Shown here: positions 26,512 through 63,129 of the stretch, piece by piece | How the letters are laid out: every line of letters begins with the position of its first letter | Position numbering within the stretch: the stretch's first letter is position 1 | IMG/VR virus record: IMGVR_UViG_3300042907_001325 | Location: 7,259-71,258 of that record | Direction: 5' to 3' (one strand) | Source of the DNA: a virus | Length of the DNA stretch: 64,000 bases | The notes under the pieces: generated by a model | The model's input: only the letters and a program-made list of their open reading frames with translations | Told to the model about the DNA's origin: nothing | The model's database searches: none | Made by a program: the position numbers and the translations under genes

Positions 26512-26535
26512 TAACTTACAACAAAAAATTTTTAA

Positions 26536-27593: not shown

Positions 27594-27598
27594 ATATG

Positions 27599-47523: not shown

Positions 47524-48009
47524 TTATTGACCTTTAATCATTCCCATTCCATGTTTTAAGAATTCTTTTGCTCTTGGAGACACATGTTGCATCCTATAAA
47601 CCGATTCAATGTCTTTAACAAGTTCTTCCCCGTGTTCGTTTTCTTTGTAAAGTTCAATAATCTTGTCCATTGCTCCACCACACTCTTTTTTTGTTTCGTC
47701 AAAATAGTTGTAAGGTTTAAAACTTTTTAAATGGTTCATTACCTCACTTGCCAAATGTTCACCACCATCAGAGACTTTTGGGTGTAACCTAAGAGTTTTT
47801 AATAACTCTAATTTATCAACTAAACCGTTAACTCCGGTTGGTCTAATCTTCACACCTTGAATATAGTCTTGTGGTTCATCATGACCAACAATCTCCTCAA
47901 GAGATTTTACATTTCCACCGTGGCAGAATTTTCGGTCATCTTCTTCTCTTAAAACTCGTCTAACTAATCTTGTTAAATCTCTTTCTGTCAATCTTTGAAC
48001 TCTTCTCAT
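47524..48009 (-). CDS. RLTE-leader cassette protein
   Basis: MRRVQRLTERDLTRLVRRVLREE; TATTTAT before ATG. Confidence 0.75.
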   Translation of the reverse strand: MRRVQRLTERDLTRLVRRVLREEDDRKFCHGGNVKSLEEIVGHDEPQDYIQGVKIRPTGVNGLVDKLELLKTLRLHPKVSDGGEHLASEVMNHLKSFKPYNYFDETKKECGGAMDKIIELYKENEHGEELVKDIESVYRMQHVSPRAKEFLKHGMGMIKGQ

Positions 48010-48061
48010 ACAAATAAATATATTGATTTTGTTTATTATATGTAAATAGTCTTAAATTTGA

Positions 48062-48259
48062 TTAAAACAACTTTTGTGTGTCGGTATATAATTTTTTCAT
48101 ATTTGACTCAATTATATTAATTTGTCGTTGGTCTTCATCTGTAATTTCAAAATTTTTAGCTTTGATTAATCTAACTTGTTCTTCAAGTCTTTGGTATCTT
48201 AAAACCATATCATCATAAAGTCTAGCTTTTTCTTCTTGTGTTAAATGTTGTGCTCCCAT
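48062..48259 (-). CDS. Small coiled-coil protein
   Basis: 65-aa ORF. Confidence 0.6.
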   Translation of the reverse strand: MGAQHLTQEEKARLYDDMVLRYQRLEEQVRLIKAKNFEITDEDQRQINIIESNMKKLYTDTQKLF

Positions 48260-48297
48260 TGTTTTTTTTTTAAATGATAATTCTTATTTTAAGTATA

Positions 48298-48495
48298 TCA
48301 AGAGATTTTATTTTTTTTTTGGTCGTTCCAATCCATCCAAAATGCAAGAGCGACAATAATATTCATTCCAAATGATGCGAGTATTTCATAGATGTCCTTA
48401 TAAACATTCATTGTTATGTGAATGTGACCAACAATCCAAAATGGCATTGCCATATTTGACCCAATCCATCTTATCGCATAAATTATTAAAGGCAT
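48298..48495 (-). CDS. Small membrane protein
   Basis: Hydrophobic 65-aa ORF. Confidence 0.55.
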   Translation of the reverse strand: MPLIIYAIRWIGSNMAMPFWIVGHIHITMNVYKDIYEILASFGMNIIVALAFWMDWNDQKKNKIS

Positions 48496-48526
48496 TTATG
48501 GTAAGTTTAGTAAAAAGTTTTAATTG

Positions 48527-48958
48527 TTAAATGATTTCAATTGAGTTAATCTTATCTCCTTGTTGTATTTGGTCAATTATATCAAGTCCCTCCATGACTT
48601 TACCAAAACACGTATGGTTTCCATCAAGGTGTTGTGTTCCTTGTCTGTTATGACATATGAAGAACTGAGAACCACCTGTGTTACGTCCAGCGTGAGCCAT
48701 TGACAACACACCTTTTTCGTGGAATTGTTTTGGTGCGGTTACTTCACATGTAATGTTGTATCCTGGCCCACCATTACCAACTCCATTAGGACATCCACCT
48801 TGTATTACAAAGTTTGGGATGACTCTGTGGAAATTTAATCCGTCATAGAATTTTTTACTAATTAAACTTTTGAAGTTTTCTGTGGTGATTGGCGTTTCGT
48901 TGTCATACAACTCAGCAATCATATCACCTTTGCTTGTTGAAATTTTTACTTTACTCAT
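48527..48958 (-). CDS. ppiA: Cyclophilin-type peptidyl-prolyl isomerase
   Basis: FYDGL.FHRVIPNFVIQGGCP, GVLSMAHAG.NTGGSQFFI, HLDGNHT.FG. Confidence 0.93.
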   Translation of the reverse strand: MSKVKISTSKGDMIAELYDNETPITTENFKSLISKKFYDGLNFHRVIPNFVIQGGCPNGVGNGGPGYNITCEVTAPKQFHEKGVLSMAHAGRNTGGSQFFICHNRQGTQHLDGNHTCFGKVMEGLDIIDQIQQGDKINSIEII

Positions 48959-49070
48959 ATATTTTATTTTTTAAAAAAATAAGTAAAATATATTATTGTA
49001 TCAATAGTTAATTATGTTGAAAATTATCTTAATAGACTTGTTTTAACATAATATTTTATAAATATCAATC

Positions 49071-49256
49071 TTATTGCAGTATCTTCCAAACTTTTTTAAT
49101 CGGTAATCCAAGTAGGTCATCAAAATGTCCAATAGCAAATTTTGAATCTTTATCACTATAATTTCTAATTTCAAAAACTAAAACTTCTCCTGAACGAATT
49201 GTTTGTTCATCAGTAATAGTATAATCTTGGCCTTCTATGTTAATTGTTTTTGTCAT
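49071..49256 (-). CDS. Hypothetical protein
   Basis: 61 aa, overlaps upstream stop. Confidence 0.5.
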   Translation of the reverse strand: MTKTINIEGQDYTITDEQTIRSGEVLVFEIRNYSDKDSKFAIGHFDDLLGLPIKKVWKILQ

Positions 49257-49573
49257 AAGTTTTTATTGTTATTCCATTTCCATCCAAAAAATAATTTCAT
49301 AAATGTTCTATGTATCCAATTTGGTGTTTTATCTAAAAATATACGAAACTTTTTTTTATCTCCAATAGAATAACTACCAACATTTTTATTTGTTATTAGT
49401 TTTTTGTATTCCAAATATGGTTTTTCTGTATGAACTACTTTATGAAAATTATCAAGACCAATTTTATCAATTTTAATATCTAAAATTTCTCTTTTCTTTT
49501 TAGGTTTGTAATATTTTTTTTTTGGTTCTTTTTGAACGTTTATTTCAGTTTTAAGGTTTGTTTCTTTTTCCAT
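49253..49573 (-). CDS. Basic hypothetical protein
   Basis: PNWIHR.FMKLFFGWKW C-terminus. Confidence 0.6.
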   Translation of the reverse strand: MEKETNLKTEINVQKEPKKKYYKPKKKREILDIKIDKIGLDNFHKVVHTEKPYLEYKKLITNKNVGSYSIGDKKKFRIFLDKTPNWIHRTFMKLFFGWKWNNNKNL

Positions 49574-49577
49574 TTTT

Positions 49578-50024
49578 TTAGTTTACGATTAAGTTTTCAA
49601 TAATTACAAATCCAATTAATCCTTCGATATAATCGACGATTTGTTCTTCAGTACATTCAGAGATTTTTTTAAAATTAATTTCTCCATGTTTAGGTGTTTC
49701 AGGAATTAATTTTAAGTTTTCTAAGATTGAAAGATTTTCTAAGTTTATAACATATTTATCCATATTTTCATCCAAAACAACTTTAATATTCCCCATTAAT
49801 ATTTTTTTGTGTTCGTCATAGTAGTCAGGATGAAGTAATCCTTCCAATGATGGGTACATTGTTATTGTATCGGCACCTCCTCTAAATGAATTTCTATTAA
49901 TTTGAGAGGAAATCTGTGTGAATTTATCTAATAATGTCTTATTCCAATTTAATTGTACTCCAACATCTGGTTCAATAGTTTCTTTCCAACCCATAAAATC
50001 CCAATTAACAATATTTTCTTTCAT
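49578..50024 (-). CDS. Small protein resembling a fragment of a gp23-type major capsid protein
   Basis: WDFMGWK...WNKTLLDKFTQISSQINRNSFRGGADTI. Confidence 0.5.
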   Translation of the reverse strand: MKENIVNWDFMGWKETIEPDVGVQLNWNKTLLDKFTQISSQINRNSFRGGADTITMYPSLEGLLHPDYYDEHKKILMGNIKVVLDENMDKYVINLENLSILENLKLIPETPKHGEINFKKISECTEEQIVDYIEGLIGFVIIENLIVN

Positions 50025-50119
50025 ATTTTAAAATATAGTAATAAAAAATTAATAAAAAAGTTGTTATAATGAATTTTATGTATATCTTTGTTTTATTATT
50101 AATTTAAAAACAAAAAAAA

Positions 50120-50260
50120 ATGGCAAAAGCAAAAACTTTATCAACTTCAGGTAAAACAGGAAGACCAAAAACAAAACGTCCTGGAATTCACGCAAAGACA
50201 AAATCTTCAAAATTAAAAAAATCTAAAAATTACAAAAAACTTTACTGCGGACAGGGTTAA
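50120..50260 (+). CDS. 46-aa highly basic protein
   Basis: MAKAKTLSTSGKTGRPKTKRPGIHAKTKSSKLKKSKNYKKLYCGQG; TATCTTTG upstream. Confidence 0.7.
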   Translation: MAKAKTLSTSGKTGRPKTKRPGIHAKTKSSKLKKSKNYKKLYCGQG

Positions 50261-50291
50261 GATTAACCACTATTAATAAAAAAACCCCTAA

Positions 50292-50408
50292 TTACAGGGG
50301 TTTTTTTATTTTACTTAAAAAATTAGTAACTTTTTCAATTCGTTTAACGTTTTTGGACAAATTTCTTCTATTTTTCTTTTTTTTACCTTCTTTTTTTGTT
50401 TTTGCCAT
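50292..50408 (-). CDS. 38-aa basic peptide
   Basis: MAKTKKEGKKKKNRRNLSKNVKRIEKVTNFLSKIKKPL; ends inside a bidirectional hairpin at 50281-50307. Confidence 0.45.
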   Translation of the reverse strand: MAKTKKEGKKKKNRRNLSKNVKRIEKVTNFLSKIKKPL

Positions 50409-50433
50409 ATCTTTTATATTTTTATTGGTAAAA

Positions 50434-51393
50434 TTAACGAACAGGTTGGTTTCCAGTTATTGCCGCTCCAGCCTTTGCTCTAAGATTTTGTATTCCTCTA
50501 CCAAATCCAGTATCTGCACCCATTCCTAATGCACTCCTTACTTTACCTCTACCTAACGTGTTTTTTAATTTACTAATTGTTGCGTCAGTTTTTTCAAATG
50601 AGTCAAACATACTTTCTTTTTGTTTTGGGTCTGTAATTTTGTCCCATGCAGAACCAATTTCTGATTTTAACCAAGCGTCAAGTTCAGGAATATTAGTTGA
50701 TTTTCTCTCTGGTGTTACAGATTGAACTGGTGAAAGTGAATTAAAAATTTGAGATAATTCAGAATTCTCTAATACTTTTTGATATTTTGGTGATTTTGTT
50801 ATTGGGTCTACAATAACGACATGGGCCAAATCTTTATTCAAAGTACCATCTGTAATCGCCTTTGTTAATGTTTCTTTAGTATATGTTATTGGCGTCGCTT
50901 TACCATCAACAGATACTTTATATTCAGCTATTTCAGGAGCTACTTTAGCAAACATAGATTTTAAATCTTCTGCAGTTCCGGCTGTAATCCAATTTGGCAT
51001 ACCTTCTTTCCATACTTTGGTGTCTGCTTTAATTTCTCCTTTTGATATTGCATCTTGTAATTGTGTGGCGTCCATAACTACATTACCAGTTGCGGTTTTA
51101 ACGGTATATGATGTTGTACTTGGAGCCGCTTTTTTTGCTATTAGATAGTCACTTAGAGCTTTTTTTGTGTAAGTCCCATATTTTCCGTCCTCTTTCAATG
51201 CAATCCATCCCGGAGTACTCACATTTTTTTTATTTAATTTTATTTGTATATCCTTCACAGTTGCGTTAGGGACATTTGGGTCTATTTTACTAAGAGCCGC
51301 CTGAGTTTCAACAGATTGTTCAAAAATATTTTTTTTATAGAGATTTAAAATTTCTCTTTTTTCACTTTCAGTTATAATTAATCTTTTTCCCAT
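50434..51393 (-). CDS. PG-binding plus GYF_2 (DUF4339)-like protein with ITESEKREIL leader
   Basis: VKDIQIKLN...L.EDGKYG..TKKAL; L...I.KG.I..DT.VWKEGM.NW..A. Confidence 0.65.
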   Translation of the reverse strand: MGKRLIITESEKREILNLYKKNIFEQSVETQAALSKIDPNVPNATVKDIQIKLNKKNVSTPGWIALKEDGKYGTYTKKALSDYLIAKKAAPSTTSYTVKTATGNVVMDATQLQDAISKGEIKADTKVWKEGMPNWITAGTAEDLKSMFAKVAPEIAEYKVSVDGKATPITYTKETLTKAITDGTLNKDLAHVVIVDPITKSPKYQKVLENSELSQIFNSLSPVQSVTPERKSTNIPELDAWLKSEIGSAWDKITDPKQKESMFDSFEKTDATISKLKNTLGRGKVRSALGMGADTGFGRGIQNLRAKAGAAITGNQPVR

Positions 51394-51415
51394 TTTATTA
51401 TATGTGTTATATTAT

Positions 51416-52081
51416 TTATTGTATCTCAGCGGCAATTTTAGCTAAGGCAGCCTCGTCGTAGTTATCCACATCTGATATAATCTTTTCATTTTCAGGAGCT
51501 TGCACTGTTTGTACCGGTTGAACAACTGACTTAACTTCTGGAGTTTTAACCTCTCGAGTTTTAACCTCTTGAGACTTAACCTGTTCTGTATTTTTATTGT
51601 TTTCTATTTTCTTTTCAATGGTTTTACCCTTTACAAAAGTTTGAGATAACTGACATAAAGCAGAAACTTTCTGTGTTAATGTGGGGATATTTTCAATGTA
51701 AAAAAGATTTTTACATTTACCAATCGTTTGTGGACAAGGAGGTAATTTTTGTTCCGTTCCAATTGAAAATTTACCACTACTACAAGTATAATAAATATTA
51801 CCCTTTCCTGACCCATCGACATTACCCGCGATATTTCCAACTTTTTGCCAATTAGTATTAGCATATAAAATACCTTTATTTCCTATATTAAAAGTGGTGC
51901 CTTTAAATAATTTAAGTTCAGACCCCCCATCGAATTTATTTTCAAGTTCAACCGTAGCACCGAGAGTAAATGAAGTTGGAATTGGGGTATCTTCCATTAA
52001 ATAGTGGTTTTTCGTGGCAGTTTTATGTAGTTCTAATATTCTATTTTTTTCTTCCAGTAATATTTTATTAATATTTATCAT
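51416..52081 (-). CDS. Hypothetical protein with EEKNRILELH leader
   Basis: Leader ends YLMED; EVK repeats. Confidence 0.65.
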   Translation of the reverse strand: MININKILLEEKNRILELHKTATKNHYLMEDTPIPTSFTLGATVELENKFDGGSELKLFKGTTFNIGNKGILYANTNWQKVGNIAGNVDGSGKGNIYYTCSSGKFSIGTEQKLPPCPQTIGKCKNLFYIENIPTLTQKVSALCQLSQTFVKGKTIEKKIENNKNTEQVKSQEVKTREVKTPEVKSVVQPVQTVQAPENEKIISDVDNYDEAALAKIAAEIQ

Positions 52082-52106
52082 ATCTTAAATTTATTTTTTA
52101 TTTATT

Positions 52107-52433
52107 TTAATTTGAACCTGTGTGTCTTTTTCTTGGTTCCATTTTTTCATAGTAACCTTCTTTAGAACCTTCCCAATCCCAAGGTAAATCATGTTCCATA
52201 TTGTATTTAATTTTTTTTTCGGAAATACCTTTTAATTTTGCAATAATTCGTTTAAGAAATGGCTGTGATTGGTCTTCATCTTCATCTTCTTCAGTAACCA
52301 AAGGTTTTGAATCTCCAAGTTTAGAGTTTGCTAACCTTGAAAAACTCTCAGTCATAACTTTCATTCCTCCGGTATGTTGGTTTCGGATATTATTTTTTTC
52401 CTCGTCTGATAAATCATTTAATAGGTGTTTCAT
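52107..52433 (-). CDS. Hypothetical protein with EEKNNIRNQH leader
   Basis: MTES and VTEE sites. Confidence 0.65.
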   Translation of the reverse strand: MKHLLNDLSDEEKNNIRNQHTGGMKVMTESFSRLANSKLGDSKPLVTEEDEDEDQSQPFLKRIIAKLKGISEKKIKYNMEHDLPWDWEGSKEGYYEKMEPRKRHTGSN

Positions 52434-52499
52434 AATTTGTTTTATTATAAATATACAATAATTACAATAATTAAAATTATTTGCAACTAAATTGACACA

Positions 52500-53528
52500 T
52501 TAAACGCTGAACACTATCAATCTTTTAGAACTATAACCCAAATTTTTTAAATATTGTTTTAATTCATCCCTGAATATCTCTCGATAACTATTCCAAGAAC
52601 TTGCAGAATAAACAAGTCCTATCTCTCCAAGAAGTTTGGAAGTATTTGTGTTAAATTTTATTGAGTGTAATACGGATTTATTCCCCCAAGTTTTAATATC
52701 CTTTTTAATTTTTTTATTAAGAACATTTTTAACCCATTCATCAACACCTAAAAGGGTAAATCCATCTTGAAAAAAAAAATCAATATTTCCATGAACGGGA
52801 CTCCCCATTTCAAACCCCAAATAATTTGTGATTAAATGCTTAAGTTCTCTTGAAAACTGTTTTATCTCATCCAAACTTCCATCGTATTTCATTGCAGGTT
52901 CAAACTCTGCGGTCATCCAACCTCGAACCACAAATGGTGTGTCTTCTTTAAAATGGATTTTAACAAAATCAGGTATGTCATACTTGGATATAAAATGGTC
53001 AAGAATTTTTTTAAATCTTTTAGTGAATATAATATCCTTTTTAAGGGATGGTAATTTTCTAACTTCTTTCTTAACTAATGCACGACCAATATTTGTCATT
53101 TGAGTTAATGTATTATTATATCTAATATCATAATCAGAAACTTCGTATTCCGTACCGAATTCTTTGATGTATTTTTTAACTAATAAGGACATAGGATATT
53201 CACCAATCTCATCGCCATGATTTTTTTTTATCCAAGTTCTAAATTCCATGACAAAAACTTCCAAAAAATCTTCATCACTATATCCTGATATGTCAACATC
53301 TTCCGTAATTGTACTAATAATTGATTCTTCAATTTTAAAATCACGTTTCAATTTCATCTTCATAATCCCAACAGAGTTATTAAGTTTTTTATACTCGTTA
53401 GAATCACCATAAATAGAATAATCTTTAATAAAATGATTAATATCTTTAATAATTTCCTTAAGTTCATGCTGAGTATTACATGAAGTTATCTTCATAAGTA
53501 AATCATTAAAAGTTTGTCTTTTATTCAT
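52500..53528 (-). CDS. Two-domain hypothetical protein (start revised to ATG 53528)
   Basis: TATTTAT-N4-ATG; IEESIISTITED junction. Confidence 0.65.
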   Translation of the reverse strand: MNKRQTFNDLLMKITSCNTQHELKEIIKDINHFIKDYSIYGDSNEYKKLNNSVGIMKMKLKRDFKIEESIISTITEDVDISGYSDEDFLEVFVMEFRTWIKKNHGDEIGEYPMSLLVKKYIKEFGTEYEVSDYDIRYNNTLTQMTNIGRALVKKEVRKLPSLKKDIIFTKRFKKILDHFISKYDIPDFVKIHFKEDTPFVVRGWMTAEFEPAMKYDGSLDEIKQFSRELKHLITNYLGFEMGSPVHGNIDFFFQDGFTLLGVDEWVKNVLNKKIKKDIKTWGNKSVLHSIKFNTNTSKLLGEIGLVYSASSWNSYREIFRDELKQYLKNLGYSSKRLIVFSV

Positions 53529-53571
53529 AACAATAAATACTAAAAAAATCCAAATTATTATTGGGTATAGT

Positions 53572-54606
53572 TTAATCCGTAAATGTATTATTGATTCTGT
53601 AATCAAATACGACCAATAATCCTGTTGATTTTCTTAATGTATGTTTTAAGTCGTAAATTAACTCATCAAAAACAGACATTTTAGTTGCCGAATGTAAATT
53701 TATCGTTAATTTAAGATAAATTCCAGGTGTTGTATCATACATATTTCCTTCCATGTCAGTTCTTGCTCCTGAAATCATAACCACCTCATCAACACTTATA
53801 CTATCAATTATGTCCACCTCATCACAAGTACTAAAACTAATATGACTTGCGTAGTTATCAGCATTATATTCATTACACTGTTTTTTGATGTATTCTACAT
53901 TATCATCAATAATTTCCTGAAATAATTCTTTTTTGCTTAACTTTTGTTCAGTTATAGTTTTCTCAGTGTCATCAACATCTATTGGTGATAATTTATTGTT
54001 AGATGTTTTTGGTGGAATTGGTGGGTCCAATATAAATTTATCATTAACCCATTTTCTTAACTCATTTTCAACAAAGTATTCAGGAACTTCCTGATTGTTT
54101 GGCATACTATCTGCCAAATTGGCAATATGTCTGGCAAATTTAATTTTATATTTATCATCCAACATGGTCATTAGACCATCAGATATAAAAAATATTTTTG
54201 AAAATGGGTCATCAAAATTAATTTCACCTTCAACAATTTTAAATGAATTTAGAATTGCCTTACCCCAAAACGTTTTATAACTTTCAGTTTCTGTTAAACT
54301 TGGTTTTAATATTTTATTAATTGCTCTTGCAACACCCGCAATAATACCAGGAATCATTAATTGTGGTAGAAAAAATGGAATTAATCTAATTGTTGCTTTA
54401 AATCCACCCTCACCAACATGTTTATATATTCTATTTTTAGATGATTCTTGAACTAATGCTTTTAACTGACCAAAAGTAATTTTACCTTGAGATTTACAAA
54501 ATTTTTCACTGTCACAAATGTTTTTTGCCGCGGTTTTGGATGGTTCAATATTTTCATCTTCCCCAATTAAAGTTTTATATTGTGATTCAGTAATAACGTA
54601 TTTCAT
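53572..54606 (-). CDS. Two-domain protein with MKYVITESQY leader
   Basis: Hydrophobic segment; TITEQ junction. Confidence 0.65.
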   Translation of the reverse strand: MKYVITESQYKTLIGEDENIEPSKTAAKNICDSEKFCKSQGKITFGQLKALVQESSKNRIYKHVGEGGFKATIRLIPFFLPQLMIPGIIAGVARAINKILKPSLTETESYKTFWGKAILNSFKIVEGEINFDDPFSKIFFISDGLMTMLDDKYKIKFARHIANLADSMPNNQEVPEYFVENELRKWVNDKFILDPPIPPKTSNNKLSPIDVDDTEKTITEQKLSKKELFQEIIDDNVEYIKKQCNEYNADNYASHISFSTCDEVDIIDSISVDEVVMISGARTDMEGNMYDTTPGIYLKLTINLHSATKMSVFDELIYDLKHTLRKSTGLLVVFDYRINNTFTD

Positions 54607-54684
54607 ATAACGATAAATACTCTATAAAACAAAAAACCCCACCTATTATGGATGGGGTTTAAAATAGTTAAAAATATTTTTTTA

Positions 54685-55293
54685 TTATTTAATATCTGAA
54701 CTTTCAATTAATGTGTATGTAAAATGATTGCCGTGTACTTTAGCAGCTTTTTTACAAATAGAGATAAATTCATTAAAATCTTTTACTCGTTTAAACACCT
54801 GACAACCTTCTGACCAATTTTCTACCCAAGTAGAATCAACACCAGATTTATGTATATTAATACCAAACATTCCCGTATCTTGTTTAACTTCATCAAAAGT
54901 TAAATCTTTATTATCATCTCTCCACACAGTAACTTCTTGTAATCTTTGACAAACCGCTTCATATTTTCCTTGATGTAATGATAATGCGTATGCTCCTCTA
55001 TATTGTCCCGGTACTAATCTTGCAACACCATTTTTATTATGGAATTGTTTAACTCCTTTTTTTCCTGGGTCGCAGGTTGCTTTCCAGCAATAAAATTGTT
55101 CTACTAATTGAGCATCTTTAAAAGACACTGTTAAACAGTCATCAAATACATTAGTCACTTTTTTATATATGCCAGGTAAGTTATTTCTTACTCCTACTAT
55201 ATTTACATCGTAAGTTTTATTTGAGGCATCTTCAAACCATTTATATCCTTTTGATTTTACGGCCGTTTTGATTTGTTCTTTTGTATAACACAT
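54685..55293 (-). CDS. Putative cell-wall enzyme/endolysin (His/Cys, L,D-transpeptidase-like fold)
   Basis: NIVGVRN, FDD, T.DPG, GINIH, WSEGCQV. Confidence 0.55.
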   Translation of the reverse strand: MCYTKEQIKTAVKSKGYKWFEDASNKTYDVNIVGVRNNLPGIYKKVTNVFDDCLTVSFKDAQLVEQFYCWKATCDPGKKGVKQFHNKNGVARLVPGQYRGAYALSLHQGKYEAVCQRLQEVTVWRDDNKDLTFDEVKQDTGMFGINIHKSGVDSTWVENWSEGCQVFKRVKDFNEFISICKKAAKVHGNHFTYTLIESSDIK

Positions 55294-55517
55294 ATTCTAA
55301 TTTATTAATAAATATTACATAAAACAAAAACCTCCACCTGATAAAGGAAGTGGAGGTTAGTTTTATTTTTTTATTTTAGTATCCGTAGTCGTATCGTACC
55401 AAATAACAATAAGAAGTAATATATTAAAAATAATTAGTTTAACGAAGTTTGAAGTTAAAATAATTAAAACTAAAAATAAGAATATAATACAATATATTAT
55501 ATATGTGTCCAAAATAA

Positions 55518-55739: not shown

Positions 55740-55889
55740 TTTTATTTTTTTTGTTTTAATTAATACTTCTACAAATATACTAATTTATTTTTATTCTGTC
55801 CATTAATATTATTTTTTTTTAAATATTTTTTTCTTTGAATTAAACTTAGTACATTTGTTATAAGTTAAACTAAAAAAAAAATAGAAATT

Positions 55890-56225
55890 ATGTTAAAGTC
55901 AAAAAAAGAAGCTAACGAATATAAAAACTGTTCACTTATTAAATTAAAAAGTGTACGTATGATTTATCGTTTTTTATCATATACGAATTTAGATAATGTA
56001 AACTTTTTTTTTACTTTTTTTGTGTTAGGATTTTTTGTTTTCCTTTTTAATAAGGTGAATATTTTAACTTCATCATTGTTTGTCATTTTTCATTATTTTT
56101 TCTTTTGGAAATACCTTATATTAAATAAAAAATTTAAACTAGTTAACGATAAGGACAGAGAAGAAATTGAAGAAGTAATTTTTTTCTTGGATGAGTTTAT
56201 AAAAAACAAAAAACCCCACCGATGA
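55890..56225 (+). CDS. Two-TM membrane protein
   Basis: Phe-rich helices; TACATTTG upstream. Confidence 0.55.
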   Translation: MLKSKKEANEYKNCSLIKLKSVRMIYRFLSYTNLDNVNFFFTFFVLGFFVFLFNKVNILTSSLFVIFHYFFFWKYLILNKKFKLVNDKDREEIEEVIFFLDEFIKNKKPHR

Positions 56226-56252
56226 GGTAGGGTTTAAAGTTTTAATTTTTAG

Positions 56253-56945
56253 TTAGTCTTTCTTTTCCTTAAGTTTTTTGCTGTACTCAGCAAGAGTGAC
56301 TGGTGTTCCTACTGGATAAGGAAATCCTGATTTAGCGGCAGTTATTGATTTCATACCATTTTTAGCGGGAACTGCTTTACGTAATGGAAATGCCGCCTCA
56401 TTAAGTGGCCCATAAACTTTAGCCAATACAATACCTGTAGATGTTGTATCAAAAACAACTCCTGGCATCGCAAACATATTACTCTCACTTGTACTTGGAG
56501 AATCTAAATTAATTATAAAAGACCTATTAACTGGAGACATCATTTCCCACTCCTTAGTTGAAGGGTTAAATTGGGGGATAGTAGTTGTTGAATCATAATA
56601 CCAAAATAAAGACCATATAGTATTATCTGTTCCGTCAGGAGTTTGGAAGTTTTTACTCACATTAAACTTTCCGTATGTTTCACTAACACCCTTCATTGCT
56701 AAGTTGGAAATAGATGGTCCTGACAGTACGGGACATATTGCACATCCTTCATCAAACTCAACACCTTGCACAACAATCTTTCTTCCTGTAGGTACCGCCC
56801 CTGATGCCCCACAAAAAGCAAAAGAACCCTTATGTATCTTAATAATTTTATCAGATTTAATATCTTCTAACGTTTCAGTTTTTGTTTCTGTATTACAACT
56901 AAATAACATAGTGGCTGTAACAATACTCAATAATAATTTTTTCAT
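56253..56945 (-). CDS. Lipoprotein
   Basis: MKKLLLSIVTATMLFSC lipobox; FAFCGAS and CAICPV. Confidence 0.75.
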   Translation of the reverse strand: MKKLLLSIVTATMLFSCNTETKTETLEDIKSDKIIKIHKGSFAFCGASGAVPTGRKIVVQGVEFDEGCAICPVLSGPSISNLAMKGVSETYGKFNVSKNFQTPDGTDNTIWSLFWYYDSTTTIPQFNPSTKEWEMMSPVNRSFIINLDSPSTSESNMFAMPGVVFDTTSTGIVLAKVYGPLNEAAFPLRKAVPAKNGMKSITAAKSGFPYPVGTPVTLAEYSKKLKEKKD

Positions 56946-57030
56946 AGTTTATAATTTTTATTAATAAATATTACATAAAACAAAAAACCCCCAATCAAAT
57001 GAAAGGGGGTTTAAATTAGTTAATATTATA

Positions 57031-57588
57031 TTACGATTTACTTCTTTCTCTATTTGTTTCTCTTTTTGAATAAGAAAAACAAGCCAATATAATACCAAGA
57101 ACCATTACTAATAACGCCATACCAGCATTACCACGACCCAAACCCATGTATTGTTCGTTTATCTCATGTATTTTAGTGAAAAATTCACTCTGACTCCAAC
57201 CTGATACTTCACCGGCAATACTGATTAATCCTGTCGCACTTGCCAATCCTCCAGCGTAAATTCCAAGATTTGAGATAAAATCTTTAACTCTACTAATAAT
57301 ACCTTCATTTATATAACCTTCGTCCACTAATTTTGATTCTTCGTCGTCTAATTTATTTATTATCTTTTCAAGATTCACCTCTTTAGATTTTTTAAGTATC
57401 TTTGATAGTTCTGCGTCAGTTAAATCACTAAAAACCTCATTTTTAAAGAAATTTTTTGATGCATTAACGGCTTTTTTAAAATTATCAAAAGAACCTCGAA
57501 TAAGTCCTTTTTCTTTTTCTTTTTCAGTTATTATTGTTTTGGCAATTCTCACCAAATCTCTTTCTGTTAATCTTATAATTCTTGCCAT
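57031..57588 (-). CDS. RLTE-leader cassette protein, two-TM cargo
   Basis: MARIIRLTERDLVRIAKTIITE; INEG site, then two hydrophobic helices. Confidence 0.75.
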   Translation of the reverse strand: MARIIRLTERDLVRIAKTIITEKEKEKGLIRGSFDNFKKAVNASKNFFKNEVFSDLTDAELSKILKKSKEVNLEKIINKLDDEESKLVDEGYINEGIISRVKDFISNLGIYAGGLASATGLISIAGEVSGWSQSEFFTKIHEINEQYMGLGRGNAGMALLVMVLGIILACFSYSKRETNRERSKS

Positions 57589-57593
57589 AGTGT

Positions 57594-57800
57594 TTATATT
57601 GTTATTTGTGCGTCAATCTTAGTACCATTCATATTACAATCGGTTAATATTAATGAACCGTTTCTAACTTCCCATGTTCCACTAGTTCCACACGTTCCAT
57701 CCTGAACATCATTAAGTGTGAATCTTTCTTGGTCTTCTTTAATTACTCGTCTAACCAATCGTGTTAAATCTCTTTCAGTTAATCTTACAGTTCTTCTCAT
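57594..57800 (-). CDS. RLTE-leader cassette protein, ~45-aa beta cargo
   Basis: MRRTVRLTERDLTRLVRRVIKED. Confidence 0.75.
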   Translation of the reverse strand: MRRTVRLTERDLTRLVRRVIKEDQERFTLNDVQDGTCGTSGTWEVRNGSLILTDCNMNGTKIDAQITI

Positions 57801-57886
57801 AGTAGTTTAATTTATTAATAAATATAACATAAAACAAAAAAACAACACCTTTGTGGGTGTTGTCATGTAAAATATATGTGGGGGGG

Positions 57887-58402
57887 TTATGCTTTTAGAG
57901 ATTGACCTTGATTCTGTACTTTACAACCGTCAATTGATATCCCTTTTTTAAATTTTTTAACCAATCCCCAAATTGTGTCCCATGTTATGGTGTGTTCACC
58001 ACTTAAATCTTGATATAATGTTTTACCAAATTTTTTATTATAGGCATTTAATACGGAACCCATTTGTTGTTGAGTTTTTATTTCAGATAAAACTTTTGTT
58101 AAATCGTTAGATGCTCCAACCCCTGTCATTGAATTGTGTAGTCGTAATATCCATGATTGAATTGTTTTATCTAATTGGTTTGGTTGACCAGATATCCCTC
58201 TTAATTTGCCAAATAATTCTAAAGACAATTCACCCGATGATTTATAAGTTTTACATCCTGTTTGAGGGGTATTTCCTACCCCTATATCAACACTATACCC
58301 TAATTCAGGCATAGCTTCTAAACCACCTAAAAATTGTTCTTTAATAACCCGTCTAACAAGTCTTGTTAAATCTGATTCCGTTAATCTTACAGTTCTTTTC
58401 AT
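57887..58402 (-). CDS. RLTE-leader cassette protein with annexin-like repeat
   Basis: MKRTVRLTESDLTRLVRRVIKEQ; LHNSMTGVGA...AYNKKFGKTLYQDLSGE. Confidence 0.7.
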   Translation of the reverse strand: MKRTVRLTESDLTRLVRRVIKEQFLGGLEAMPELGYSVDIGVGNTPQTGCKTYKSSGELSLELFGKLRGISGQPNQLDKTIQSWILRLHNSMTGVGASNDLTKVLSEIKTQQQMGSVLNAYNKKFGKTLYQDLSGEHTITWDTIWGLVKKFKKGISIDGCKVQNQGQSLKA

Positions 58403-58403
58403 A

Positions 58404-58577
58404 TTAAATGTCCCGTTTATCCATCAAGTTTAAATATTCGACAATGGCAGTTAATCCTGTCCCAAATGATATTCCAAGACAACCAAAAATCATTAATGAA
58501 TTCATGTTGTCCCAAAAAAATAAAACTAATAAAATCTGAGAAACACACATTACAAAATTTAAAATAAAAGGTATCAT
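58404..58577 (-). CDS. 57-aa two-TM protein
   Basis: Hand-translated MIPFILNFVMCVSQILLVLFFW...; TATTTAT before ATG. Confidence 0.55.
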   Translation of the reverse strand: MIPFILNFVMCVSQILLVLFFWDNMNSLMIFGCLGISFGTGLTAIVEYLNLMDKRDI

Positions 58578-58594
58578 ATTATATAAATACTGTA

Positions 58595-58741
58595 TTAAAC
58601 CAATTCTTTACTATAAAGGTTTGCCAATATAACTCTTGCAAATTTAAAATCTTTAACACGATTTAACTTCAATCCATAGGCAACAGCAATCGATTTAAGG
58701 TATGGGTAAGCTTCATTAAGGGTCATTTTTCCTATTTCCAT
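58595..58741 (-). CDS. 48-aa hypothetical protein
   Basis: Hand-translated MEIGKMTLNEAYPYLKSIAVAYGLKLNRVKDFKFARVILANLYSKELV. Confidence 0.55.
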   Translation of the reverse strand: MEIGKMTLNEAYPYLKSIAVAYGLKLNRVKDFKFARVILANLYSKELV

Positions 58742-58895
58742 AATTTGTTTCTTAAAATGTATTTTAATAATTTATATCGTAGTCTATACAACATGTTCAA
58801 AAGTTTTTATAAATATAAAAAAATAAAATGAAATAAAAAACCCCACTCTTATTAGGAATAGGGGTTTGTTATATATTTTTTATAGGTTTTTTTTA

Positions 58896-59291
58896 TTAAA
58901 AAAGACATTCAAATAATTTGCCAACATCGGCTGACAATCTTTCACCTCCAAGTATTCCCGATTCCGAAATTAATAGAAGGGTTATCCCACTTATAGCCAA
59001 CGCACCGCCAGCAACAAACTGAACTCCTGGTGTCGCTAAAGCCAATGCCATAATTCCAAGTGCGTATGACCCTGCGGCTGTTGTTAAAACCGCCAAACTA
59101 CTTAATCGTTTTCCAGTAATACAACTTTTGATTTGTTTTTCCATACTTGGATTTTTTTCTCCTGCGGCATATTTTTGTTTTGCAGTTTTAATCGCTGATG
59201 TAAAGCTGTTAGACTCTTCACTTTCTTCTCTTATAACTCGTCTAACCAATCTTGTTAAATCTCTTTCTGTTAATCTTACAATTCTTCCCAT
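58896..59291 (-). CDS. RLTE-leader cassette protein, Gly/Ala-rich hydrophobic hairpin
   Basis: MGRIVRLTERDLTRLVRRVIREE; long hydrophobic stretch between two Cys. Confidence 0.75.
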   Translation of the reverse strand: MGRIVRLTERDLTRLVRRVIREESEESNSFTSAIKTAKQKYAAGEKNPSMEKQIKSCITGKRLSSLAVLTTAAGSYALGIMALALATPGVQFVAGGALAISGITLLLISESGILGGERLSADVGKLFECLF

Positions 59292-59385
59292 AGTGTTTTA
59301 ATTTATTAATAAATAGTATGATAATCAAAAAAAAAAACCCACTCTTATTAGAAAGTGGGGAATTAATTTAAATTATATGATTTTA

Positions 59386-59832
59386 TTAACTTCTTTTATT
59401 TAATGTTACATAACATACACCGCTAATTCCTGAAATTTCTCCCTCACCTTGTGCAACTATTTTTGCATTTCCTGATTTCATTTCTCCAGCTAATCTTTTA
59501 GATTGGTCTAACGGGATAGTAAATACTTTCCCTGTATTATCCACTCCCGCAATACCATTATCTGTTTTATTGTTCCATAATTTTGATATCACCACAGGTC
59601 CTTTATATGCTGACATAAATTTTCCAAAAACATTCTTGCCACAGTTAACACTTACTTTATAATTGTTCATCAAGTTTTTTACATTTTTCGCATTTAACAT
59701 ACCATTTGGTGATGAATTAATGGTAATACCATCAATAACCGCAGCCTCATTTATATTATTTTTTTCTTCACTTAGAACTCGTCTAACAATTCTAGTTAAA
59801 TCTGATTCCGTTAATCTTATAATTCTTGACAT
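59386..59832 (-). CDS. RLTE-leader cassette protein
   Basis: MSRIIRLTESDLTRIVRRVLSEE...INEA. Confidence 0.75.
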   Translation of the reverse strand: MSRIIRLTESDLTRIVRRVLSEEKNNINEAAVIDGITINSSPNGMLNAKNVKNLMNNYKVSVNCGKNVFGKFMSAYKGPVVISKLWNNKTDNGIAGVDNTGKVFTIPLDQSKRLAGEMKSGNAKIVAQGEGEISGISGVCYVTLNKRS

Positions 59833-59849
59833 AGTATTTTAATTAAATA

Positions 59850-60086
59850 TTACAACAAACCAAGTTCTGGGTTATCGATTATTTCATTTCCAACATCTGA
59901 CGCTGCCGCTGAAATAGATTGTCCAATACTATCATCATCACCATCCCAGTCTGTTCTATCTTGAGCCTTTGTTTCATGTTTATCTTCTCTTGCTTCTTTT
60001 CTAGATTCTCCATCCTGAATATCAGTTTTTTTCTCTTCTCTAGCGGTTTCTCTGTCTGCTCTACGTGTTTGTGCACCTTTTCCCAT
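59850..60086 (-). CDS. Small highly charged disordered protein
   Basis: RETAREEKK / RKEAREDKH repeats; TATTTAT upstream. Confidence 0.55.
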   Translation of the reverse strand: MGKGAQTRRADRETAREEKKTDIQDGESRKEAREDKHETKAQDRTDWDGDDDSIGQSISAAASDVGNEIIDNPELGLL

Positions 60087-60196
60087 AATTAATTTTGTTT
60101 ATTATAAATATAAAAAAAAACCGAATGTTTTCTCGTTCTGGTTAAAAAGATGAATTTATTCTCCTTACCTTGTTTTAAAAGTTGCAATGAAATTAA

Positions 60197-60538
60197 TTAG
60201 TATGCGTATTCCTCTTCACCTCTGGAAAATGTGGTGATTCTTGATTCTTCCACAGGTAAGTTGTAATGTTTGTAAAGCCATTTAGATAACGCGGACTGAA
60301 TATCTTTAAATCCTACCATAGAGAACATATTGATTACACTAGTATAAGCTTCGTCTAGCACATAAGCATAATACCCTTGACCATAATCAGTAAGAATAAC
60401 AATAATTATGGGGTCACCATTGTCATTCACTAACGTAAATTTATCATCTTCTAATTGATGATGTAACTTACCAAATTGAGTTGTAATGAAATTATCAATA
60501 ATGTTATCAAGTTTACTTTCAGTAATAATATAATTCAT
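60197..60538 (-). CDS. MNYIITESKL-leader protein
   Basis: Leader shared with the 60572 gene; C-terminal KWLYKHYNLPV. Confidence 0.7.
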   Translation of the reverse strand: MNYIITESKLDNIIDNFITTQFGKLHHQLEDDKFTLVNDNGDPIIIVILTDYGQGYYAYVLDEAYTSVINMFSMVGFKDIQSALSKWLYKHYNLPVEESRITTFSRGEEEYAY

Positions 60539-60571
60539 TTGTCAGATACTTTAATTATTTTTATAAATACT

Positions 60572-60934
60572 TTACAGGTCCTGAATGGTTTTCACAGATA
60601 CGCCAAACCTTTCAGTGAACCACTCCTTAAATATTTCATGCCATCTATCACCAAAATACCCATTTAATGACGCTAAATATTTATTTTCAATCTCAATAAT
60701 GGGAGCCTTGTTTTTCATATCCTCAGAATTATCATCAAACCATTCAGGACCATACCACCAAAAACAATCATCTTCATCCTCAGAATCACCAAGATATGCT
60801 CGTAATGCATTATCATCCTCATTGTAAAAATCATCTAATGGGTGAGTCCAATGAAGTTCATCTTCAGGAAATAGTTCATTAAGATAATCAATGACTATTT
60901 TTTCAAATTTAGACTCTTTGATAATATATTTCAT
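60572..60934 (-). CDS. MKYIIKESKF-leader protein
   Basis: C-terminal EWFTERFGVSV, similar to neighbour. Confidence 0.7.
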   Translation of the reverse strand: MKYIIKESKFEKIVIDYLNELFPEDELHWTHPLDDFYNEDDNALRAYLGDSEDEDDCFWWYGPEWFDDNSEDMKNKAPIIEIENKYLASLNGYFGDRWHEIFKEWFTERFGVSVKTIQDL

Positions 60935-60935
60935 A

Positions 60936-61439
60936 TTATTTTTCAGTTCCCACTACAGTAATTTGTACAACCCTATCATCATCTGTTTCACTATCGTAAA
61001 CCTCATTATCCAATTGTTTTCCTTCCCAATACAGATAAAATTCATCTTCTCTCATATCAGATAAATTATCGTCATTTAACACACAATAAGAAGGTATTAT
61101 TGTTTCATAATACCTTGTCCCAGATTCAGTATAGTCTTCAGTATGAAGTACCTTTAATATTTTAAGTTTTGGTCTTTCAATTGGAATCTCAGGATTAACA
61201 TTTAAATTTACTAATTCACACAAATAACTATAATCGTTAAAATTGGGGTTATTAATTCCAAAGTATACCAAAGCCGATTTAACCAAATCAAGATTAGAAA
61301 GAATCTCGGATATATCAATTTCCTCAATATCAATTTCTTCAAATTTTTCGTAAATTAATAGTATTAATCTTACCAATAATTTATCAGGTAAATTACTAAT
61401 CTCTGTTGGTGCTCTGGCGTTTTGGTAGGGAGAACTCAT
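60936..61439 (-). CDS. Hypothetical protein, probable paralog of 43699-44340
   Basis: Shared motifs listed under the paralog. Confidence 0.65.
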   Translation of the reverse strand: MSSPYQNARAPTEISNLPDKLLVRLILLIYEKFEEIDIEEIDISEILSNLDLVKSALVYFGINNPNFNDYSYLCELVNLNVNPEIPIERPKLKILKVLHTEDYTESGTRYYETIIPSYCVLNDDNLSDMREDEFYLYWEGKQLDNEVYDSETDDDRVVQITVVGTEK

Positions 61440-61563
61440 TATTAAATTATAAAAATATATGTTTATTGAATATAAATATAATACAAAATTAAAATAAGGG
61501 GTTTATTTCACATTGTATCCCTTATCCATCAACCGGTCGAATTTTTCGACTCTCGGTAAATCG

Positions 61564-61773
61564 TTACTCTACAATAAATTTTCTTGATTCCTCTTTAAGT
61601 CCTCTTAATAATCCTTTTTTGTATGCAACATAATCTTTTTCATATTTATATGGCCAAGCAATTAAGTAAGTATTTCTTTCACTTTTTGGATAAGTAAATA
61701 AATCACTTTTTAATTTCTTTTTAATCTTTCGTGGCAATCTAAATTTTTTGTTTTTTTGAGACATATCTTTCAT
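61564..61773 (-). CDS. Small basic protein
   Basis: FRLPRKIKKKLK; TATCTTTG upstream. Confidence 0.6.
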   Translation of the reverse strand: MKDMSQKNKKFRLPRKIKKKLKSDLFTYPKSERNTYLIAWPYKYEKDYVAYKKGLLRGLKEESRKFIVE

Positions 61774-61885
61774 TACAGTGGGTTTTTATATAAAGACAAA
61801 GATAGTAAATTATTTTAAATTTTACAAATATACCGTAAATCTTATTGGGAATGGGGGATTAATTTAGATTTTTTAATGACCATCA

Positions 61886-62803
61886 TCATTTTTTATTTTC
61901 CTGGATTACCCGTTTAACAATACGGGTTAAATCTGATTCTTTCAGAGATTCATTATTATCACTTTCTGTAATATCTTTATAAACATCATTAATAAACTCC
62001 CAAATAGGTGAATAATATCTATCGGTAGATATTGTTTCTTCATCTTTCATTTCTGTTGGTTGGTGTCTTTCCATTGCGTTCGCAATAAGTTCTTGCGGAA
62101 TATCCAATTCTTTTGAGATTTCAGATGCCATTTTATCAATAACATTACTATCCATAGAAACCAAAGAATTATATTGTTCCACTTTTGATTGGAAGTTAGG
62201 TTTTAATGTTTTATTTAAAACCTTGAAAATTTCTTTATCTTCTGCATATCCTCTAATCTTAGGGTTTTCTTCACCATAAGATTTAATAAAATTAACAAAA
62301 TTATCATAAATATTACCTTTTGATTTTTCACGAATAACTTCGCCAGTATTACACAAATATTCTACCGTTCCGTCGTCATATAGTTTTAATTTTGCGGGAA
62401 AATTATATGAATCTAACTGACCCGCCTTATAATCTTTTGTATCAGTAAATGAATATTCTGAAGAAAAAGACTTCATATCAATTATTATTTGATAATAGTC
62501 TTTTATTTTTTTATACTCAACTTGAAGGTTGTCCGTGTCTTTTGAAATCAATTCCATTATTGATTCCAACTCTTTATAACAAGTCGACTTTATTAGACCT
62601 TTAGAAAATAACCCAAATAATTGTACTAATATTTTTCTACCAAAAAGTTTAATAGCCGCAAATGAAACCAAAGTTCCTCCGATAAGTGTTAAATAGTCGT
62701 TTAACCCTTCATTGACAGGTTTCTTTTTTGTTTTATTTTCTTTAATAACTCGTCTAACCAATCTTGTTAAATCTCTTTCTGTTAATCTTGTAATTCTTCC
62801 CAT
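61886..62803 (-). CDS. RLTE-leader cassette protein with the motif at both termini and one TM
   Basis: MGRITRLTERDLTRLVRRVIKE ... LKESDLTRIVKRVIQENKK. Confidence 0.78.
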   Translation of the reverse strand: MGRITRLTERDLTRLVRRVIKENKTKKKPVNEGLNDYLTLIGGTLVSFAAIKLFGRKILVQLFGLFSKGLIKSTCYKELESIMELISKDTDNLQVEYKKIKDYYQIIIDMKSFSSEYSFTDTKDYKAGQLDSYNFPAKLKLYDDGTVEYLCNTGEVIREKSKGNIYDNFVNFIKSYGEENPKIRGYAEDKEIFKVLNKTLKPNFQSKVEQYNSLVSMDSNVIDKMASEISKELDIPQELIANAMERHQPTEMKDEETISTDRYYSPIWEFINDVYKDITESDNNESLKESDLTRIVKRVIQENKK

Positions 62804-62835
62804 AATATTATTTGTTTTTTAATGACCTGAAAGTA

Positions 62836-63129
62836 TTAAAAATCACTATAATCAATACTATCATAAAGTTTTTCTTCTATTTCTGACGCTAATTCATCAT
62901 AATGGTGGTCTCTTAAAACATCAATAATATACCATTCATCAATTTCATCGATTGCGTCTGGTGAAAATCCAAGTTCGTTTAACAGAAAATCTTCAGCTAT
63001 TTTTATTAACTCTTTAAGCGACTTATTTTCAAAATCACTATCATAATCATCATCGTCATCCATTTCGCTAATAACTCTTTTAACGATACGAGACAAATCG
63101 GATTCAGTTAATCTTGTAATTCTTGCCAT
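62836..63129 (-). CDS. RLTE-leader cassette protein, acidic cargo
   Basis: MARITRLTESDLSRIVKRVISEM followed by a D/E-rich domain. Confidence 0.75.
   Translation of the reverse strand: MARITRLTESDLSRIVKRVISEMDDDDDYDSDFENKSLKELIKIAEDFLLNELGFSPDAIDEIDEWYIIDVLRDHHYDELASEIEEKLYDSIDYSDF

Follow-up and report, generated by a model that had tools for sequence, protein, structure and literature searches.

The window analyzed here is a stretch of 64,000 nt of viral DNA, corresponding to bases 7259-71258 of the 71,258-bp IMG/VR record IMGVR_UViG_3300042907_001325, and it contains eight minus-strand genes whose products begin with almost the same N-terminal leader peptide (Table 1). The original prediction, made from the letters of the window alone, had described eight such genes sharing a leader of about 22 amino acids and diverging completely after it. 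All eight open reading frames (ORFs) are present, the leader is 22 residues long from Met1 in every one, and an alignment of the eight genes has zero conserved columns past residue 22. When the first 30 residues of the eight proteins were aligned, they gave the consensus M-x-R-x-x-R-L-T-E-[RS]-D-L-x-R-[LI]-[VA]-[RK]-[RT]-[VI]-[IL]-x-E, in which M1, R3, R6, L7, T8, E9, D11, L12, R14, and E22 are invariant (8/8). A six-frame scan of the whole record confined the strict leader motif to these eight N-termini. Two additional copies, overlooked by the original prediction, are C-terminal: one forms the last 19 residues of the leader gene 7 protein (61886-62803), and the other is found at the C-terminus of a 236-aa protein encoded beside the capsid gene, just outside the window.

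The mature parts of the eight leader proteins, referred to here as cargos, gave no significant pairwise BLASTP match to one another (best E 0.049 in an eight-sequence database), and a larger set of 239 unique leader proteins fell into 160 BLAST clusters by cargo, of which 128 are singletons. The possibility that the leader proteins constitute one homologous family was ruled out by the unrelated mature parts together with this cargo clustering.

The Leader Is Conserved as a Peptide up to Glu22

Across the 239 proteins, L7, T8, E9, and E22 are 100% conserved, and position 20 is I in 91%, L in 6%, and V in 2% (I, L, or V together in 99%). Conservation falls off past E22, with Q23 present in 43% and later positions reaching at most 28%, and the residue that follows E22 is mostly Q, N, E, or S. 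The [I/L]-x-E ending that had been read from the window genes is borne out as an invariant [VI]-[IL]-x-E at E22, and L7-T8-E9 constitutes a second invariant site of the same form. Nine of the 22 residues are charged, the net charge is +4, and the helical hydrophobic moment is high. At the DNA level, 123 distinct leader-coding DNAs from related loci use between two and five synonymous codons at the invariant residues (four for L7, four for T8, and five for R14), and the codon differs at one third of identical leader residues. Because the invariant residues use several synonymous codons, selection acts on the leader peptide and not on its DNA.

The sequence suggests that residues 2-7 of the leader form a short basic strand and that residues 8-22 form an N-capped, amphipathic, Arg-rich helix. 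AlphaFold2, run on the 171-aa leader gene 4 protein with a 41-sequence alignment, produced a helix of low confidence at residues 9-24 that does not touch the cargo, a linker predicted as disordered at 25-49, and a confident helical domain at 50-166; residues 2-7 were not modeled as a strand. The model has just two strands, both short (50-53 and 160-163), and each contains one of the invariant cysteines of this protein, Cys50 and Cys160. On a cellular contig, the C-terminal strand and helix of a BrnA/ribbon-helix-helix (RHH)-like antitoxin (L077:4001-4054, plus strand; …NINIRLTERDLSRLKRKAIEEGIPYQ…) fits the leader pattern. This match suggests that the leader has the shape of a strand followed by an N-capped helix, and no homology is claimed.

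A very different role, which we judge highly unlikely, is that the leader is a self-association or nucleic-acid-binding module akin to half of an RHH fold, or else a degron for a phage Clp ATPase and ClpP. The antitoxin tail and the Arg-rich leader would suit the former, and for the latter, genes for ClpP and a two-AAA Clp-type ATPase are present in the phage. However, the second RHH helix is missing, because conservation ends at E22 and a variable polar linker follows, and the AlphaFold2 leader is of low confidence and stands apart from the cargo. The peptidoglycan enzymes and transmembrane (TM) hairpins among the cargos described below would have no reason to bind DNA or to be degraded, and the I/L-x-E boundary would have no role.

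The Leader Is Multi-Copy and Essentially Confined to Viruses

A profile scan of the leader for copy number and cargo turnover, the check that the original prediction had proposed, revealed a multi-copy leader with highly diverse cargo. The profile, built from the 30 N-terminal residues of leader proteins, matched 5,668 protein clusters (50% identity) among 1.84 billion cluster representatives at E <= 0.001. Among the best 150 of the 5,668 representatives, the leader was found at Met1 in 140, within a few residues in 4, and after an internal Met in 6, the last probably being over-long gene calls; it was internal only in none. At least two leader copies, as in fused genes, are present in 26 of these 150. 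In IMG/VR, 487 stretches match R-L-T-E-[RS]-D-L-[TVS]-R, and among the 75 IMG/VR loci kept, 168 of 169 leader copies have a Met start; the remaining copy starts at GTG, behind a TATTTAT element. The uncultured phage records examined contain 7-15 leader-profile matches each.

A scan of 185,579 cellular genomes identified only three loci, one of which is a true copy, N-terminal and carried by an AT-rich contig of 3.3 kb that had been placed in the bin of a Bacteroidetes metagenome-assembled genome (MAG). The other two are the tail of the RHH-type antitoxin and a chance match inside an enzyme. The leader is therefore essentially virus-only, which argues for a phage-encoded receptor. In cultured phages, neither one whole leader protein nor the 30-residue leader gave any tblastn match against 50,697 records, even at E 10, and the Flavobacterium phage that is the closest cultured capsid relative has no long leader (E up to 1) and no short-leader DNA pattern. 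No description of the leader motif strings was found in the literature searched (full text of a limited collection).

Distant homologues of the leader gene 4 cargo carry a shorter leader, M-K-I-I-I-T-E-S-Q-Y-R-L-L-N-E-Q, in which both Glu residues are kept, and this one cargo family is found either with the long or with the short leader. Short-type N-termini are also encoded in the window (Table 1) and are multi-copy in relatives; the short-leader DNA pattern occurs three times in G000, twice in G001, and eight times in G005 (zero in the control). A third, looser N-terminal class, roughly M...E-E-x-x-R-[IF]-x-x-L... and then, some 10 residues on, [TL]-L-x-E-[QND], was observed on larger proteins; it also ends at an L-x-E-type site, and one member has an OmpA-like domain.

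Cargo Proteins Point to the Cell Envelope

Few leader proteins resemble known families: Pfam gave no match for 130 of 140 (10 matched), and PHROGs gave none for 137 (3 matched). Five of the 10 Pfam-matched cargos are cell-wall or peptidoglycan-binding proteins, namely VanY, a TseH-like hydrolase, PG_binding_1 with YkuD/Tlde1, OmpA, and PG_binding_1 alone. The other five comprise a thioredoxin-like domain and weak GNAT, annexin, and E1-E2 ATPase matches, the E1-E2 match being below the cut-off. Mature parts contain no Cys in 96 of the 239 proteins, one in 28, two in 76, three in 14, and four in 22. Cys parity is even in 99 cargos and odd in 44, compared with 62 +/- 6.5 and 107 +/- 7.6 under a binomial null, whereas the record's other proteins have the opposite parity (13 even, 28 odd). 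TM-like segments are found in 16 of the 239 cargos, and the median mature pI is 5.7.

The annotated domains and the paired cysteines point to envelope-directed, disulfide-stabilized proteins, and the cargo looks like something built for an oxidizing, envelope-side life, unlike the anti-restriction proteins of T4. The payload had been proposed to be anti-defense or membrane-active. Nothing observed favors the first proposal, the few annotated cargos being cell-wall enzymes or peptidoglycan-binding proteins and the cargo cysteines being paired; the second fits the 16 of 239 with a TM-like segment and not the remaining majority. Among the individual cargos that had been described, hydrophobic segments were found in leader genes 5 (58896; two) and 2 (57031; one), and acidic mature parts (pI 4.1) in leader genes 8 (62836) and 3 (57594). 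The annexin-like repeat, for which the candidate is leader gene 4 (57887-58402), stood only in part: annexins are the top Foldseek rows for the gene 4 model, with E values of 0.23 or worse and a TM score of 0.35, but the Pfam annexin repeat PF00191 scored 23.1 bits, under its gathering cut-off of 25, and the domain is at most annexin-like. ESM Atlas returned nothing for leader gene 6 (59386-59832).

Cargo of this kind raises the possibility, in our estimation an unlikely one, that the leader is a non-Sec export or membrane signal for envelope-acting proteins (lysis, superinfection exclusion, or wall remodeling) in the infected cell. The Cys pairing and the cell-wall or peptidoglycan-binding nature of five of the 10 Pfam-matched cargos would be expected of such proteins, the net charge of +4 and the high helical hydrophobic moment would suit a signal, and residues 1-16 are reminiscent of the helix pattern in double-glycine bacteriocin leaders. 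However, a hydrophobic core, a twin-arginine-plus-hydrophobic layout, and a Gly-Gly site are all missing from the leader. The C39 peptidase PF03412 was found in none of five records, the ABC ATPase PF00005 exceeded its cut-off in none of five near-complete records, and, with the leader essentially missing from cellular genomes, no host pathway that natively handles such substrates is evident.

A Sec or Tat signal was ruled out, as residues 1-22 are free of TM-like windows in all eight proteins, and a double-glycine leader was likewise ruled out, since the leader logo contains no Gly and no C39 peptidase or ABC exporter was found in the five records searched for each.

Upstream Elements, Expression, and Exchange of Cargo

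The heptamer TATTTAT lies no more than 45 nt upstream of 41 of the 105 ORFs of the whole record, compared with 2.7 expected. It heads the portal, protease, scaffold-position, 236-aa head-module, and endolysin-like genes, and it heads every transcription unit that holds a leader gene. A second element, TAnnTTTG, precedes 16 other genes of the record and resembles the Bacteroidota -7 promoter box in form. The leader genes may be late, given that TATTTAT precedes the head genes.

A promoter class common to leader and structural genes would also be expected if the leader were a retained virion anchor that docks small domains on the outside of the capsid, the tail, or the baseplate in the manner of decoration proteins or fiber adaptors, an explanation we regard as improbable. 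Paired Cys residues and peptidoglycan-binding or OmpA-like domains are typical outside the cell, and fibers and decoration proteins are commonly built from a conserved N-terminal anchor and a distal part that varies. On the other hand, VanY, YkuD/Tlde1, and TseH-like enzymes and TM-hairpin cargos are ill-suited to a capsid surface, and an anchor has no need for conservation that ends at the Glu of I/L-x-E and is duplicated at L-T-E. An anchor of 22 residues would be very small, and the fused proteins with two leaders would be harder to explain.

Between the small genes at 54.6-63.2 kb are seven cassettes consisting of a hairpin, a T-run, and TATTTAT (Table 1). Common upstream DNA, a hairpin followed by TATTTATTAATAAATTAAA, is found in only three of the eight leader genes, among them leader gene 3 (57594-57800). 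In four lake RNA libraries, contigs were found over several leader genes, which indicates presence only, DNA carry-over being possible. Many distinct RNA-library contigs stack on the 66 leader-coding nucleotides and diverge just past the end of the leader, which shows that the pattern of leader plus variable cargo exists in nature. Some contigs join one leader copy to another (for example, 57583 to 62738), and such joints could reflect either genuine recombination in related phages or chimeric assembly. A 409-aa protein (P0001) that is 97.7% identical to the leader gene 7 protein has an extra 104-aa module past the second leader and, judged from the two sequences, this difference is a recent gain or loss of a module exactly at the leader.

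These observations bear on whether the 66 nt of the leader, together with the cassette, are a DNA-level recombination or expression element whose peptide has no function, which we consider extremely unlikely. The seven hairpin-promoter cassettes recur much like the promoter(early) stem-loops (PeSLs) of T4-type hyperplastic regions (PMC2839356), the RNA-library contigs link leader copies, and module gain or loss has taken place exactly at a leader. Against this, the invariant residues use several synonymous codons, and the cassette is missing from five of the eight leader genes. Recombination at the leader repeat is probably real but secondary.

The Head Module Encodes a Prohead Protease

The record is about 24% complete according to CheckV, and leader-bearing records that are 93-100% complete have lengths of 272-296 kb (about 270-296 kb for the clade); the window is thus a quarter of a giant phage. 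The T4-type portal and terminase reported by the original prediction were recovered (PF07230, E 8.4e-76; PF03237, E 2.4e-14), and they form part of a T4-like gene order of terminase, portal, two small proteins, S77 protease, a 566-aa acidic protein, and gp23-type capsid protein. The same head gene order is found in the cultured Flavobacterium phage. The S77 protease matches the T4 prohead core protease structure 5jbl (E 9e-13). Its family, PF03420, is present in 15 of 30 leader-bearing records and in five of the six that are at least 90% complete.

In T4, gp21 cuts after the Glu of L/I-X-E, and N-terminal propeptides of 10-20 residues direct internal proteins to the scaffolding core before being removed, as described in PMC9026906 and PMC5694885. 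Residues 57-60 of the capsid protein are L-[IL]-N-E, followed by a variable stretch, in six of six relatives, and this position agrees with the start of mature T4 gp23; it is a probable cleavage site at the boundary of the capsid propeptide. Further probable sites are I-L-E-A at residues 6-9 of this record's S77 protease and the [IV]-[IL]-x-E-A-T found at the N-terminus of the 236-aa head-module protein in four of four relatives. The motif [VI][IL]xE occurs within the first 30 residues of 13 of 89 other proteins, compared with 4.8 +/- 1.7 in random internal windows, and none of 2000 random draws reached 13. V-I-K-E at capsid residues 20-23 was dropped as a cleavage site, the Glu being missing in one of six relatives.

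The 566-aa protein at the scaffold position ends in …DLMGKLG and the protease in …DLMRKLTDYLGK, an apparently shared C-terminal tail that perhaps serves as a common anchor to the shell. A 233-aa protein rich in L-x-E is a candidate component of the core, and the capsid propeptide would comprise residues 1-60. The 236-aa head-module protein has an invariant basic core with four cysteines (…PWVNIC…PPCGR…YPKCRAAG…SAC…) and a C-terminal leader-like helix, which in this record is a canonical leader copy. Its divergently transcribed neighbor is also Cys-rich, and the two are fused in one relative.

The Leader as a Probable Capsid-Targeting Propeptide

We favor, with slightly better than even confidence, the interpretation that the leader is a long capsid-targeting propeptide, cleaved off from a hypervariable payload that is ejected. 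All of the checks run fit a T4-like capsid-targeting leader and, in that respect, the packaging tag of the original prediction; core binding, cleavage, packaging, and ejection (that is, injection of the payload) we infer from sequence. Late in infection, the N-terminal leader would tether unrelated proteins to the scaffolding core of the prohead, and the S77 prohead protease would cut it after Glu22 of [VI]-[IL]-x-E and probably also after Glu9 of L-T-E, so freeing the mature cargo inside the head, from which it would leave with the DNA at the next infection. Each phage of the clade would have its own set of about 7-15 cargos. Because the tag would be portable, cargo genes could be gained, lost, fused, and swapped at the leader boundary, and fused and C-terminal leader copies would be tolerated because they would be cut out. 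Processing at both ends is described for T4 Alt in PMC9026906. The peptidoglycan enzymes and membrane hairpins would act on the envelope during entry, and paired cysteines would suit proteins waiting in particles in oxic water.

Several findings weigh against a cleaved capsid-targeting propeptide. Twenty-two strongly conserved residues are far beyond the need of a cleavage site, C-terminal and internal leader copies occur, and E22 is mostly followed by Q, N, E, or S, compared with A or S after the inferred capsid, protease, and head-module sites. PF03420 was not found in 15 of the 30 leader-bearing records, of which 14 are fragments (20-61% complete) and one is 93% complete, and the TATTTAT class that links leader and head genes spans 41 of 105 genes. 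Paired Cys residues and cell-wall domains suit an extracytoplasmic role, equally by export or by surface display, and to our knowledge, T4 internal proteins are not known for such a role. The TM-like segments in 16 of 239 cargos and the acidity of half of the mature parts are unexpected for proteins packed with DNA.

A broader proposal, possible but doubtful in our view, is that a clade of giant freshwater phages uses one tag, read by the core and erased by the protease, to load thousands of unrelated proteins, many of which would be cell-wall enzymes or small domains stabilized by disulfides, for delivery to the envelope or periplasm at infection, and that the leader also drives cargo exchange.

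Comparison with Known Systems

The capsid-targeting sequence (CTS) of the T4 proteins IPI, IPII, IPIII, and Alt is likewise an extreme N-terminal propeptide ending in L/I-x-E that is found on unrelated, fast-evolving small proteins, and T4 likewise has the gp20 portal, the gp23 capsid protein, and a gp21-type protease. T-even internal proteins are described in PMC3012670 as highly diverse, with only the CTS conserved, and in PMC9026906, the CTS is regarded as a means to load varied proteins. IPIII needs 10 CTS residues according to PMC9026906, whereas the leader here has 22, with two invariant protease-type sites. The leader is also almost identical in sequence across thousands of cargo clusters, with 7-15 matches per record, and its cargos differ from those of the T4 CTS in having paired cysteines and cell-wall domains. 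A like function is claimed for leader and CTS, not homology. The CTS principle is known from T4; what is new is a 22-residue tag with two sites, the scale, the home in uncultured giant phages, and an envelope-directed cargo with paired Cys residues.

Type VI secretion system (T6SS) effectors, for example, those with MIX, likewise combine a shared N-terminal marker and exchangeable domains with a contractile delivery machine, and two cargo domains found here, TseH-like and Tlde1/YkuD, belong to families that were originally named as effectors of T6SSs. Neither the machine nor the loading site is the same, MIX is not known to be cleaved by a capsid protease, and homology is not claimed. In encapsulins, a short terminal peptide suffices to load unrelated cargo into an HK97-fold shell. 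Encapsulin peptides differ from the leader in that they are usually C-terminal, bind the shell directly, and are not removed, and the cargo is not ejected.

The phiKZ-like giant phages SPN3US and 201phi2-1 likewise have a gp21-related protease that cuts after Glu, with many processed head proteins and families of head-internal paralogues, as described in PMC5694885 and PMC9026906. Their motif is S/A-X-E or A-Q-E and their propeptides are paralogous and often longer than 100 residues, in contrast to the short portable leader on unrelated folds seen here. PeSLs (PMC2839356) likewise consist of a stem-loop terminator and a promoter that flank small nonessential genes and mediate modular shuffling. 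They carry early sigma-70-type promoters, whereas the promoter-like element here also precedes head genes, and the coding leader is a second repeat able to recombine.

If the capsid-targeting interpretation is true, the leader proteins would be the largest natural capsid-targeted cargo family known to us, with 5,668 clusters that are nearly all without a known family, and the CTS principle, so far that of a few coliphage proteins, would apply to a major lineage of uncultured phages. The leader would then be an information-rich tag with which to seek the CTS receptor of T4-type heads by co-variation, co-folding, and pull-downs and, being compact and sequence-defined, a tag with which foreign proteins could be loaded into phage heads. 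Thousands of unannotated proteins would become candidate injected effectors, with hints of action on the envelope over action on DNA-level defenses, and if they are indeed delivered, they would be a phage counterpart of the polymorphic T6SS effectors. Even without packaging, an explanation is needed for a 22-mer that is virus-only, strictly N-terminal, and common to thousands of unrelated proteins.

Other Features of the Record

Table 1. Leader genes, upstream cassettes, and head genes. Coordinates are those of the window unless a record position is given.
Feature	Coordinates	Strand	Details
Leader gene 1, 161 aa	47524-48009	-	leader 47944-48009 (codons 1-22); cargo unassigned, with 2 Cys; TATTTAT 11 nt upstream
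Leader gene 2, 185 aa	57031-57588	-	leader 57523-57588; one TM-like segment near the C-terminus (residues 150-168); lake RNA-library contigs cover 57023-57583 (3 runs)
Leader gene 3, 68 aa	57594-57800	-	leader 57735-57800; mature part 46 aa, pI 4.1, 2 Cys
Leader gene 4, 171 aa	57887-58402	-	leader 58337-58402; annexin-repeat-like helical domain, residues 50-166
Leader gene 5, 131 aa	58896-59291	-	leader 59226-59291; TM-like segments, residues 66-84 and 89-107; exact 19-nt promoter-like element at 59297-59315; RNA-library contig 58736-59177 in the region, 0 differences
Leader gene 6, 148 aa	59386-59832	-	leader 59767-59832; cargo unassigned, basic, pI 9.5, 2 Cys
Leader gene 7, 305 aa	61886-62803	-	leader 62738-62803; second, C-terminal leader copy 61889-61945
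Leader gene 8, 97 aa	62836-63129	-	leader 63064-63129; cargo very acidic, pI 4.1; exact promoter-like element at 63135-63153
Short-leader genes	60197-60538, 60572-60934	-	M-x-Y-I-I-[TK]-E-S
Further short-type N-terminus	53572-54606	-
Further short-type N-terminus	39060-39689	+
Further short-type N-terminus	50434-51393	-
Third N-terminal class	22119-23765, 31072-32115, 32143-33132, 33161-34531, 51416-52081, 52107-52433	-
Cassette, 53 nt	57806-57870	-	G+C hairpin, T-run, TATTTAT; one of seven copies
Other cassette copies	54613-54665, 55308-55360, 56190-56242, 56964-57016, 60097-60149, 63147-63199
Related repeat family	58806-58864, 59302-59360, 63136-63194		three copies
T4-type portal	681-2495	-	PF07230
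Large terminase	2535-4295	-	PF03237
gp21-type S77 prohead protease, 240 aa	record (L079) 5737-6459, before the window	-	PF03420, 80.4 bits (cut-off 27)
566-aa hyper-acidic protein, scaffold position	L079:3667-5367	-	pI 4.3, long D/E repeats
gp23-type capsid protein	record (L079) 1840-3630, before the window		PF07068, E 9.1e-72
236-aa head-module protein beside the capsid gene	L079:854-1561	-	homologues in L084-L086

The nearest cultured relatives of the capsid protein are from a Microcystis phage and the Flavobacterium phage, the latter with 44% identity over 40% of the protein. The TAnnTTTG elements, these capsid relatives, and the single copy on a Bacteroidetes MAG contig weakly indicate a Bacteroidota host. 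Nearly identical contigs are present in lake-water RNA libraries.

Other genes lie amid the leader genes, all on the minus strand. They encode a DoxX-like membrane protein (63214-63570; PF13564, E 3.7e-9), a lipoprotein-like 230-aa protein whose N-terminus ends …LFSC (56253-56945), and, within the same stretch, a cyclophilin-type peptidyl-prolyl isomerase (48527-48958; PF00160, E 3e-42). The phage has its own Clp pair, encoded on the plus strand away from the head module with its separate S77 protease: a 671-aa two-AAA Clp/Hsp100-type ATPase (12111-14126; domains AAA_2, AAA_lid_9, and ClpB_D2-small; phrog_4871, E 7e-239) and ClpP (29635-30315; PF00574, E 5e-56). On the minus strand, the gene at 9454-10917 encodes a 487-aa protein in which a nucleotidyltransferase domain, an M23 peptidase, and PG_binding_1 are fused, and its neighbor at 8064-9377 encodes a 437-aa protein composed mostly of Thr/Pro repeats (TPTNT...), possibly a fiber or spacer. 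Six tRNA genes (Arg-TCT, Asp, Glu, Met, Ile, and His) are found at 24921-27825, also on the minus strand.

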